Source: a virus
Taxonomy: Duplodnaviria; Heunggongvirae; Uroviricota; Caudoviricetes
IMG/VR virus record: IMGVR_UViG_2648501392_000022
Span: 1 to 21,150 of that record
Direction: 5' to 3' (one strand)
DNA length: 21,150 bases
Shown: piece after piece, positions 9,001 through 12,000 of the stretch
Position numbering within the stretch: position 1 is the first letter of the stretch
Layout: the number at the start of each line of letters is the position of its first letter
Program-made: the position numbers

Positions 9001-12000
9001 AACCGGTGGCATTAACAGCAACACGCATTCCTGAGCGGATCCACCGGCAGGCATTGCAGGTCCTGTTGTTGTACCGATGCCGACGGATATTTCCGCATCG
9101 GATACAGCGCACCGGATATCTCAGTCTGAAGGTTAACCGTCGCTGGCGGCTGTTATCGAAAGACGACGGCCGGAACTGGGAAGTAATGAGTCATGAACGT
9201 TATTCGGGAGAAATAAAGAAATGATCGACAACCGCACCGCCAGCACCATTGACCAGGCATTACAGAAACATGATACACCCGTCGGCCCGTTATTTTTTGT
9301 AACACGCCACGGAAGAACAAAAAAATGCCTCACCCGAAAAACGGCAATTCGTTACCTGGCATTCTTTATGACCACCCGCGCTTTTGAACGTTCAGGATTC
9401 CGACAACGCTATCCTGACAAGCGTTTTATCTTCAACAGGAATGAGATATGGAAACGTGGAGAATCAACCACAGAGTATACCCGCGCACACCAGCGAACAA
9501 TCAGACGACTGCGCAGACTCATCGCCAGGAAACAGTATACAGAAAAATGGTTCAGAAAATATGACACATGGAGCGCCGGATATTACGAACTGATGGCAAC
9601 AAAACCATTCTGACGTAAACGAAATTAACCATGACGCAATTAAATAAGGCAAGCCGAATACATCAGGAGGACCATGAACATTTATTTCAGAATAGTTATA
9701 TCACTGGCAATTATCACATGTATTTACGGATTAATCGTTCCGGCCCTCATATCAATGAAGGATACGGTAGCAGTGATTTCTGGCTTTGCTCTGGCGTGTC
9801 TGACCCCGCCCTGCATTTATGCCATTTATAAGGGTCTTTCTTTTTCTAAGGATAAAAGATGAAAAAATTACTTTTTGCTTTAGCCCTTGTTCTGCCGACC
9901 ATTGGCCTTGTCGGTTGCGATCGCGTTGAGCCTGGTAATGTGGGCATCAAAGTAAACAAACTGGGCGACGATAAAGGCGTCGGTGAAGTGGTCGGTGTTG
10001 GGCGCTACTGGACGGGATGGAACACTGAGGTTTACATCTTCCCGACCTTTAAGCAGATGAAGACCTACGATGATCCATTCAGTTTCCAGATGAGTGACGG
10101 TACAACCATCGGCTATCACATCGGCGTGGCCTACAAAGTTGATCCATCCAAAGTTACCACAGTCTTTCAGACCTACCGCAAAGGCGTGGACGACATTACC
10201 GACACCGACCTGCGCCAGAAGATAGCCGACGCACTCAACCGACTGGCCAGCAAAATGACCACCGACAAATTTATCGACGGCGGCAAGTCTGAGCTGCTGG
10301 ATGCAGCTCTTAAAGACATTCAGGAAGAAATGACGCCCATCGGTATTCAGGTAATGAGCCTCTCATATGTGGGTAAGCCGGAGTACCCGCCTACTGTTAT
10401 CGACAGCATTAATGCCAAAGTCACGGCGAACCAGAAAACCCTGCAACGCGAGCAGGAAGTAAAACAGCGCGAAGCGGAAGCCAACATGTTGCGCGCGGAA
10501 GCTGCCGGACAGGCAGATGCGATTCGCACAAAAGCCCAGGCCGAAGCCGATGCTATTCGTTTACGCGGTGAAGCTCTGCGCCAGAACCCCGGTGTTATGG
10601 AGCTGGAAGCCATCAACAAGTGGAACGGTACACTGCCGCAATACATGACCAGCGGTGCCAACACACCATTTATTCAGGTTAAGTAATACATATGCCCGGT
10701 ATTACACGCCGGGCTGTCTGGAGATAAAAATGAATATTGTAACCATCAACAACAAACAGTTTCCGGTAATCGAATATCGCGGTCAGCGTGTTGTGACATT
10801 TGCAATAATTGATGACGTCCACCAGCGCCCGGAAGGTACCGCCCGTGCTGCGTTTAACCGCAACCGTTCTCACTTTATCGAAGGGGTGGATTTTCTTGAA
10901 ATGACTGCGGACGTAATACGTACGGAGTCACTTTCTGATGCCTTTGCCGCGCGAACTGCCAAAGGGATCATTCTTTTCGAGTCTGGTTACCTGATGTTGA
11001 CGAAGCCTTTTAACGATGCTCTTGCATGGCAGGTTCAGCGCGAACTGGTTAACAGCTATTTCCGAACTCACGCGCCGCTGACGGAAATGGAGATGATCGC
11101 TGCAATGGCCGCCGATGCCGTTCGCCAGCAGAAGCGCCTGAGTCATGTTGAAGAGAAGATCGAAACGGTCACCAAAGCTGTGGAGAACATCAAACGCGGC
11201 ACAATGCGCACCGGATATGTCGGTTACCGCCAGGTGGTAGCCAAAAGCGGAATGAGTGACGCCAAGTGTCGGAATCTGGTCAACGCCTACCACATCCCTA
11301 CCGACACGCACGAATTTATGACTCCGGACGGTCTGTTGTCTCGCAGGGCTGTCGTCGAGCTTGAGACATTTATGGCGGCGTTCCACCAAATGATGTCAGA
11401 GGCTGAACCACGCGGCACACGCTGGTATCACCCGAAGATGGGGCTTTTTCAGGTAATCGGATGGGAGGATAAAGCATGATCATCCAGTCAAAACTTATTC
11501 GCGCCGCTCTGGTGTGCGCTGCTAAAAACGACGTTCGTTATTACCTGAACGGTCTTCACATCACGCCAAAACATATTGAGGCAACCAATGGTTTCGTAGC
11601 ACTGCGCATGACTCACGGCATCCGGACGAAGAAAAACATCATTGTCCAGTTCGAAGGTGGCGTCCCGGCCAAAGCCGAAACGACAGAGCTGATTTTTAGT
11701 AAAGAGCCGATCCTGTTCATCGCGACCAGTTTCAGCGCCGGCTGTCCATTACCGGCATTAAATTGGTGGACGGTTGTTTTCCGGATTTGGAACGCATCAT
11801 TCCGAAAAAATTTGACCTCTGTACACACCCGGTGATCCAGGCGGGTTACCTGAGTTATCCAGAGAAGATGTTTGGTCGTGAGCGTAAATTTATTCCCGTC
11901 CAGTTACGTTCCTCCGGTGACGGGCAAGCGGTCAGAATTCAGTTTGATTCCATCATCAACTCAATGTATGGCAATCCTGAATTTGTTGTGATGCCTTGTC

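Follow-up and report, generated by a model that had tools for sequence, protein, structure and literature searches.

A translationally coupled SPFH lipoprotein and helical hairpin protein form a widespread phage membrane module

Our subject is a 21,150-nucleotide (nt) stretch of Caudoviricetes virus DNA (IMG/VR record IMGVR_UViG_2648501392_000022, positions 1 to 21,150), hereafter called the window, and two adjacent genes that it carries on the + strand. Together, these genes are a real and widespread phage membrane module. The upstream gene (9674-9862) has a 62-amino-acid (aa) product, predicted to reside in the inner membrane and to have two helices, which we call the hairpin protein. Its assignment draws on the open reading frame (ORF), PHROG 1130, homologues, hydropathy, an AlphaFold2 (AF2) model and the ratio of nonsynonymous to synonymous substitution rates (dN/dS). 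The downstream gene (9859-10686) encodes a 275-aa SPFH/Band-7 lipoprotein, recognised using Pfam Band_7, PHROG 200, AF2 and Foldseek. A first-pass annotation of this DNA had placed a translationally coupled pair of this kind at 9674-10686. ORF calls confirmed both genes on the + strand. The Band_7 match, the lipobox and the overlap of the two genes bear out an SPFH lipoprotein that is coupled to a two-helix membrane protein. Note that the TGA stop codon of the hairpin gene (9860-9862) overlaps the ATG start codon of the SPFH gene (9859-9861), within the sequence ATGA (9859-9862). A Shine-Dalgarno-like AGGAGG (9665-9670) lies 5' of the hairpin ORF. The equivalent element for the SPFH gene, AAGGA (9848-9852), is within the 3' end of the hairpin ORF. 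Together, the ATGA overlap and the internal AAGGA indicate that translation of the two genes is coupled. An alternative ORF in another frame (9631-9831) was dismissed because it has no hydrophobic stretch.

By domain and by fold, the lipoprotein belongs to the SPFH superfamily. The SPFH domain (residues 22-208; 9922-10482) was delimited using Pfam and the secondary structure of the model. The match to Band_7 (PF01145) has E=8e-31 and 107.9 bits, against a cut-off of 23.6, and spans profile positions 2-176 of 176. The full protein matches PHROG 200 'lipoprotein' (category 'other') with E=1e-114. In the AF2 model, which has a predicted local distance difference test (pLDDT) score of 75.8, a beta/alpha core (residues 20-175) is followed by a single 65-residue helix (residues 178-242; 10390-10584) and a poorly modelled C-terminus. 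The helix corresponds to the coiled-coil helix that forms the wall of SPFH cages, and this region was aligned by phmmer to HflK residues 180-306. Foldseek returned HflK/HflC, erlin1/2, prohibitin, stomatin, flotillin, QmcA and the vault shoulder, with E values from 1e-13 to 1e-7 and 13-19% identity. The Foldseek probability was 1.00 for HflK/C, erlin, prohibitin, stomatin, flotillin and QmcA. All of the matched proteins, from HflK/C to the vault shoulder, build rings or cages. The gene is under strong purifying selection (dN/dS 0.035). Phage records often name it 'serine protease'. We dismissed this label of the homologues because no protease domain was detected; the sole protease-labelled hit is a weak PHROG match (E=9e-4) and falls in the coiled-coil region.

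The C-terminus carries a second conserved feature, the motif EAINKWNGTLP...PFIQVK (10606-10683), which is a candidate oligomer-cap or contact element. In its general form, [AI][IV][EN]KW[DN]GxLP...PF[IV]x[VI]K, this is among the most conserved segments of the family. Within KW[DN]GxLP, the W, G and P are invariant, and the K and L nearly so, in an alignment (A3) of distant homologues. Residues 245-275 have pLDDT below 50 in the monomer model. Strong conservation coupled with low monomer confidence is compatible with a role between subunits.

The N-terminus of the protein, MKKLLFALALVLPTIGLVGC followed by DR, has the layout of a lipoprotein signal peptide (9859-9918). It starts with MKK, continues with a hydrophobic core and ends with the lipobox L-V-G-C20, which fits the pattern [LVI][ASTVI][GAS]C. 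The codon for Cys20 is at 9916-9918 and Asp follows at +2. The lipobox Cys is invariant across the 11 distant homologues of alignment A3. In an enterobacterial set (A1), Cys20 and Asp21 are both nearly invariant (at least 90% of sequences). Asp at +2 is the established inner-membrane retention signal of E. coli lipoproteins. Export, lipid modification and retention in the inner membrane, facing the periplasm, are thus predicted for the protein. A periplasmic position of the SPFH domain is suggested by its lipobox signal peptide and by the topology of a natural gene fusion described below.

The small protein is a helical hairpin. Hydropathy identifies two hydrophobic stretches (residues 7-23 and 32-48), joined by a conserved turn motif, P-x-L-I-S-x-K-D-T (residues 23-31; 9740-9766). 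The AF2 model is all-helical, with helices at residues 3-25, 28-43 and 45-59 (pLDDT 66). The C-tail is rich in K and R, and basic residues concentrate at both termini. According to the positive-inside rule, both ends should therefore be cytoplasmic and the conserved turn periplasmic, on the same side of the membrane as the lipoprotein. The product matches PHROG 1130 'membrane protein' (E=1.5e-23), which is placed in the category 'moron, auxiliary metabolic gene and host takeover'. Purifying selection is evident (dN/dS 0.24-0.30). Every one of 100 representative relatives is 36-91 aa long. The small proteins of phages N4, P88, RCS47 and phiP27 align without gaps through the first transmembrane (TM) helix, the turn and the second TM helix, and have in common the motif P-x-[LM]-[IV]-S-x-x-[DNS]-[ST]...G.

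The first-pass annotation had likened the pair to SPFH-NfeD modules. Operons of this type (QmcA-YbbJ, PDB 8z5g; YqiK-YqiJ; FloT-YuaF; PH1511-PH1510) do combine an SPFH gene with one for a small membrane protein, and to this extent the comparison stands. Moreover, the shared layout speaks for the partner being a cage subunit or client. The likeness does not extend to the partner itself. NfeD proteins have ~140-150 aa, three N-terminal hydrophobic stretches and an all-beta OB-fold domain (PMC2636767). The phage hairpin has 62 aa, two hydrophobic stretches and no such domain. The hairpin of the window matched no Pfam family at E<=0.01. With six diverse hairpins, scanned at E<=10, Pfam gave only chance-level TM matches and none to NfeD. 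Furthermore, QmcA, though a fold match, faces the cytoplasm, whereas the phage SPFH protein is predicted to be periplasmic. We dismissed identity with SPFH-NfeD operons, since the partner is short, all-helical and has no Pfam NfeD match, making the layout only analogous. We conclude that the hairpin partner is a distinct family and not NfeD.

Among known systems, the HflK/HflC-FtsH complex of E. coli (SPFH3; PDB 7vhp/7vhq, 7wi3, 9cz2) provides the best sequence and fold matches. These proteins have in common with the phage protein the SPFH core, the long wall helix and a conserved C-terminal segment, and they face the periplasm from the inner membrane, as predicted for the phage protein. Identity in the fold-based alignments is ~15-18%. 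The phage has one SPFH gene, a lipid anchor and a dedicated 62-aa hairpin; HflK/C have no such partner. The scores against the equivalog models are 25.4 bits for TIGR01932 (cut-off 134.4) and 23.4 bits for TIGR01933 (cut-off 159.4). We dismissed identity with HflK/HflC because these scores are far under the cut-offs, there is no paralogous gene pair and there is no N-terminal TM anchor.

A functional analogue of HflK/C is a separate possibility, and the main rival to the explanation that we prefer. Such a cage would enclose or displace FtsH from the periplasmic side, tuning the lysis-lysogeny decision or stabilising phage proteins. Turnover of the lambda-type substrates CII, CIII and Xis, or of LpxC and membrane proteins, would be altered. 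Several observations are in keeping with this. HflK is the best match among PDB sequences (phmmer, E=2e-4) and the top Foldseek hit (7vhq_E), and there are weak NCBIfam matches to both HflC and HflK. The orientation would also be the same, HflK/C being periplasm-facing (PMC2636767) and the lipoprotein periplasmic. FtsH modulation has already been suggested for phage SPFH homologues (PMC10269572), and is conjectured in the annotation of Aeromonas phage Gekk3-15. Finally, the pair is in an early-left operon (see below), and it is the early-left operon of lambda that carries the FtsH inhibitor cIII. Against this, the NCBIfam scores are 23-25 bits, compared to cut-offs of 134-159. Foldseek scores for erlin, prohibitin and stomatin are practically equal to that of HflK, so the similarity is generic to SPFH proteins. 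The phage has a lone SPFH gene, instead of a K/C pair, with a lipid anchor in place of an N-terminal TM helix, and nothing links the hairpin to FtsH. In addition, the module is often carried by strictly virulent phages, for which there is no lysogeny decision to make. Overall, we consider FtsH control unlikely.

The first-pass annotation described a scaffold of this sort as unusual in a phage early operon. SPFH genes are not rare in phages. Using tblastn, we found a homologue of the SPFH protein in 780 of 50,697 phage records (~1.5%), and both genes already define PHROG families. Phages of Staphylococcus (241 records), Pseudomonas, Enterococcus, Erwinia, Klebsiella, Burkholderia and Caulobacter are represented, as are haloarchaeal viruses, crAss phages and Lak phages. 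The SPFH gene is also present in 535 of 5426 complete E. coli genomes (~10%).

Lack of a conserved pairing in homologous prophages had been named beforehand as an outcome that would count against the first-pass proposal. The result is clearly the opposite, in that the pairing is kept across unrelated phage lineages. We collected 340 loci using single-protein and alignment-based contig scans; a genome scan used a 6-sequence alignment. Note that the single-protein scans of viral contigs returned nearly all near-identical enterobacterial loci, and that diversity came from tblastn and the alignment-based scans. A hidden Markov model (HMM) of the partner was iterated three times, and adjacency was defined as a partner stop codon between -60 and +200 nt from the SPFH start. 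By this measure, an adjacent partner is present in 273 of the 340 loci. When SPFH proteins are clustered, the partner is adjacent in 40 of 69 clusters at 70% identity, and in 11 of 26 at 50% identity. The ORFs overlap in 28 of the 40 partner-bearing clusters, by ATGA in 15 of these. Significant hairpin hits elsewhere in the 340 loci number only 7. The pair is still present where the SPFH protein is ~30% identical to that of the window. The genome scan located it in Leptospira, Flavobacterium, Algoriella, Sphingomonas, Caulobacteraceae and Dyella. The two genes co-occur across phages of several bacterial phyla, and their overlap has been retained across Proteobacteria, Bacteroidota and Spirochaetes, in temperate as well as virulent phages. 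The virulent carriers are N4, rV5-like, LUZ24-like, jumbo and crAss phages.

Individual genomes illustrate the arrangement. In phage phiP27, a 62-aa hairpin ORF, unannotated in RefSeq NC_003356, is directly 5' of the SPFH gene (locus L002, 5006-5194). In the P2-like phage P88, a 67-aa 'membrane protein' gene overlaps the lipoprotein gene by 4 nt, at a position in the early operon between cox and the replication gene. The P1-like RCS47 has an unannotated 78-aa ORF that overlaps the SPFH gene (NC_042128; locus L004, 3731-3967), in a region next to tRNA genes. In virulent phage N4, gp19 (68 aa) overlaps gp20 by 8 nt, in the arm carrying the RNAPII genes. Among 15 further records inspected by eye, an upstream hairpin ORF was seen in Klebsiella phi8.3, Aeromonas Gekk3-15, Ochrobactrum ORM_20, Pseudomonas 16Q, Burkholderia phiE125 (gp44/gp43), crAss cr126_1 and the Salmonella jumbo phage SE_PL. 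The flanking genes differ in each lineage examined, these being the lambdoid early-left operon, the P2 early operon, the P1 tRNA region and the N4 RNAPII arm. In N4, gp18 (locus L005, 2224-2538), just 5' of gp19/gp20, is annotated 'similar to P22 gp17'. Gene 17 of P22 has a connection with escape from superinfection exclusion, which perhaps points to an exclusion-related function of this neighbourhood in N4.

Departures from the usual arrangement are of three kinds. First, the two genes can be further apart. LUZ24-like Pseudomonas phages (locus L093, 660-1022; locus L184) have a hairpin homologue ~430-450 nt 5' of the SPFH gene, so adjacency is relaxed in that lineage; in one of them, PaCe (L093), two small annotated genes separate the pair. 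In the Shigella flexneri SFBU1023 chromosome (locus L296, 1497-1733), the hairpin gene, which has an altered C-terminus, is 767 nt 5' of its SPFH partner; an insertion between the two is probable. Second, the partner can be missing: 27 of the 69 clusters have none detectable within 1 kb, a point that counts against our favoured explanation. The members concerned are Bacteroidales chromosomal, phiCbK-like, Staphylococcus, Enterococcus and haloarchaeal proteins. Hence, the SPFH protein can exist without the hairpin, which typifies a large sub-family and not all phage SPFH proteins. Third, the two can be joined. In an actinobacterial metagenome-assembled genome (Iamiaceae, CAYUOL010000005.1; locus L269, 2222-3439), a single uninterrupted reading frame runs through the hairpin, a short linker of basic residues, the signal peptide with its lipobox and the SPFH protein. 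The two genes appear to have fused naturally. The order of the parts fits the proposed topology, with the hairpin ends cytoplasmic and the SPFH domain periplasmic.

The closest phage-encoded analogue of the layout is MbpV-MbpS of Kayvirus (Staphylococcus phage K/A5W), where an overlapping gene for a small membrane protein directly precedes the SPFH gene. MbpS is a distant homologue of the window protein (~25% identity) with a TM anchor, not a lipobox. These genes, of which mbpV is holin-like, are flanked by lysK and tgl, and a part in assisting Sec export of Tgl has been suggested (PMC7150955). By extension, the module of the window could be a helper for lysis timing or export, with a holin- or pinholin-like hairpin corralled by the cage, or with Sec-dependent export of lytic enzymes. 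The predicted layout of the hairpin (two TM helices, both ends in, charged C-tail) fits a class II holin, though it is generic, and in crAss cr126_1 a peptidoglycan hydrolase gene is two genes 3' of the pair. Conversely, MbpV, at 102 aa, has a single TM helix and is missed by the hairpin HMM. The sole Pfam holin match, for N4 gp19 only, is sub-threshold and at the level of chance (E=0.038; 14.5 bits against a cut-off of 28.4). Whereas the Kayvirus genes are within the lysis region, the pair is early in the window, P88 and N4. In the window it is situated between the repressor and integrase genes, and not in a late lysis cassette with an endolysin. We think a lysis or export function very improbable.

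Broad distribution also bears on whether the lipoprotein might be a lysogenic-conversion or virulence factor that acts on animal innate immunity. The precedent is PM0222 of Pasteurella multocida, an HflK/C-like SPFH-superfamily protein that is likewise encoded on a prophage island. PM0222 is reported to be a host-directed, TLR1/2-active virulence factor, found in outer-membrane vesicles, and its deletion is attenuating (PMC9872710). Note that PM0222 is likened to the present family by description, and that TLR2 stimulation is generic to bacterial lipoproteins. Furthermore, members of the family are found in environmental and virulent phages (Caulobacter, Sphingomonas, Leptospira, crAss) for which virulence is irrelevant, and Asp at +2 predicts inner-membrane retention. 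The likelihood of such a role is extremely small.

We turn now to expression of the pair. The window region is 100% identical to the chromosomes of several E. coli strains, and the pair is 92% identical to that of Stx2e phage phiP27. According to the annotated record of strain E110019, the neighbourhood is an arm of a lambdoid prophage. Its - strand carries the genes for helicase, toprim and Q proteins and for a cro-like regulator. On the + strand, the gene for a LexA/cI-like repressor (6647-7339; E110019 annotation) is followed by a terminator-like hairpin and T-run (7358-7375, + strand), found by pattern scan, which separates repressor transcription from the operon 3' of it. Next is a 'pL-like' early promoter-like site, TTGACA-17-TATTAT (7406-7434, + strand; whole element 7392-7434), called by its match to the consensus. 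Operator-like repeats, ATCG[AG]TAAACC (7392-7407 and 7417-7432), flank and overlap this site. Repeats of the form CG[AGT]TAAAC(C) recur in the intergenic region between the repressor and cro genes (6579-6615), and both sets may be operators at which the cI-like repressor acts. Between 7475 and ~12160, the ORFs of the + strand mostly overlap or are closely spaced, the largest gap being 185 nt. Beyond ~12160, there are a few small + strand ORFs and then the integrase gene (12733-13911). In a pattern scan, no promoter-like site was found just 5' of 9674. No intrinsic terminator was identified after the SPFH gene, where there is a short inverted repeat (~10695-10716) with no T-run. These features suggest that the pair belongs to a repressor-controlled early-left ('pL-like') operon. 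The early operon of the first-pass annotation is, in this respect, upheld by the run of close ORFs behind the terminator-like hairpin and promoter-like site. Since the early promoter-like site is flanked by operator-like repeats, and the pair has no promoter-like site of its own, synthesis of the two proteins would follow infection or induction, and the lysogen would not produce them.

This argues against the function that the first-pass annotation proposed, in which the pair serves defence and not phage development. In that scenario, the prophage would protect its lysogen by superinfection exclusion or membrane-level abortive infection. The pair does lie among accessory moron-like genes (those for a ParE-like toxin and an ORF6N antirepressor-like protein) between the repressor and integrase genes, and the PHROGs category of the hairpin is consistent with this. 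The gene has also remained intact, despite three pseudogenes in the E110019 prophage, and is carried by ~10% of complete E. coli genomes (535/5426). In addition, phage lipoproteins and small inner-membrane proteins include known exclusion factors, namely T5 Llp, phi80/HK022 Cor, TP-J34 Ltp, T4 Imm and Sp, and P22 SieA. Like the pair, these are early or accessory, small inner-membrane proteins or lipoproteins, and act at the envelope; T4 Imm, in particular, is also small, has two TM segments and functions together with a partner in the periplasm. However, we detected no sequence or domain relationship between the pair and these proteins, and we know of no exclusion factor with an SPFH domain. 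Other observations argue against defence in the lysogen. Instead of a promoter-like site immediately 5' of the pair, there is the operator-flanked early site. When the pair and two neighbouring proteins were scanned against PADLOC-DB v2 (E<=0.1), no families were matched. No defence phenotype is described in the literature searched. Finally, the gene is stable in virulent genera (241 Staphylococcus records, and N4-like, LUZ24-like and rV5-related Vequintavirinae phages), where lysogen protection is meaningless. More generally, the module is portable, it is early wherever its context could be read (the window, P88 and N4), and it is equally at home in temperate and virulent phages. These points argue against both lysogen defence and a role specific to the lysogeny decision; they favour a broader function at the inner membrane during infection. 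We therefore regard lysogen-expressed anti-phage defence as quite improbable.

Several neighbouring genes are recorded here as observations in their own right. The product of an ORF at 9006-9224 (72 aa; PHROG 1525) carries the name 'ParE family toxin-like protein' in RefSeq, where the region is identical. This ORF overlaps a 71-aa ORF (8819-9034; PHROG 340) located 5' of it. The two may be a toxin-antitoxin-like pair within the early operon. Directly 3' of the SPFH gene, 10730-11479 encodes an ORF6N-domain protein (Pfam, 1.6e-12) that matches PHROG 'anti-repressor' families (6.8e-70); this gene is not kept beside the pair in other phage lineages. The three genes marked as pseudogenes in the E110019 record, which matches at 100%, are the gene after ORF6N (11476-12044; frameshift), the Q antiterminator gene (~1677-2073; frameshift) and, further left, a TerB-family gene (internal stop). 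Hence, the prophage is probably defective, and the SPFH pair is intact. In E110019, an IS3-family insertion lies between the early operon and the integrase gene (locus L001, 13660-14873); the corresponding part of the window (~12260-12730) is without it, so the window derives from a related strain and not from E110019.

Taken together, the best overall explanation is a self-contained, horizontally mobile membrane module, in which a periplasm-facing SPFH cage and its hairpin have a lytic-phase role at the inner membrane. We judge the case for this to be evenly balanced. Briefly, transcription from the repressor-controlled early-left promoter would occur on infection or induction, and not in the lysogen. 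The hairpin would insert in the inner membrane, with both ends cytoplasmic and the turn, P-x-L-I-S-x-x-D/S-T/S, facing the periplasm. The SPFH protein, once exported and lipidated, would be retained on the periplasmic face of the same membrane through Asp at +2. There, it may oligomerise into a ring or cage, like other SPFH proteins. The hairpin would be a membrane-embedded subunit or client of this cage, its turn contacting the SPFH protein. Finally, it is our low-certainty guess that, during lytic development, the cage acts from the periplasmic side to partition or stabilise the inner membrane of the host. The likeliest benefit is that entry of a superinfecting genome, or premature permeabilisation of the membrane, is blocked.

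Besides the partner-less clusters, other points weigh against this explanation. The promoter and operator calls are consensus matches only, and a weak internal promoter may have been missed. The SPFH monomer model has pLDDT 75.8, with a C-terminus that is disordered. The predicted inner-membrane retention depends on the Asp +2 rule, Arg is at +3, and the +2 residue varies, being Tyr in N4 gp20 and Ser, Asn, Glu or Arg in other phage homologues. We found no experiment on the pair in the searchable literature, and the physiological role is a guess. Publications on phage or prophage SPFH proteins, anti-phage or exclusion functions, N4-like phages and HflK lipoproteins offered annotation-level mentions and speculation only. 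For instance, a role in adsorption or DNA entry has been conjectured (PMC13239085). Two surveys of the SPFH family mention neither phages nor lipoproteins.

A bolder version of the preferred explanation is that unrelated phages make, early in infection, a minimal periplasmic nanocage that seals or compartmentalises the inner membrane. This would block injection by competitors or neutralise the membrane-disrupting effectors of abortive infection. We consider the proposal rather improbable. If true, the nanocage would be a new and widely distributed class of exclusion or counter-defence system, and a tractable two-gene model for the action of SPFH cages.

Database entries for the two proteins already exist, under the names 'SPFH domain-containing protein/lipoprotein' and 'membrane protein'. 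Seemingly undescribed in the searchable literature are the conserved coupled module across very different phages, the non-NfeD hairpin family and the in-frame fusion. SPFH proteins, including HflK/C, prohibitins, stomatins and flotillins, have recently been seen to form membrane cages, and the role of these cages is debated. Phages have captured a compact version of the SPFH protein, with its own 60-70-aa hairpin partner. As a small, non-essential module of two genes, which could be deleted in N4 or expressed in E. coli, it would offer a handle on SPFH cage function. The module would also be informative about how phages control the host envelope, be it through exclusion, FtsH control or lysis timing.

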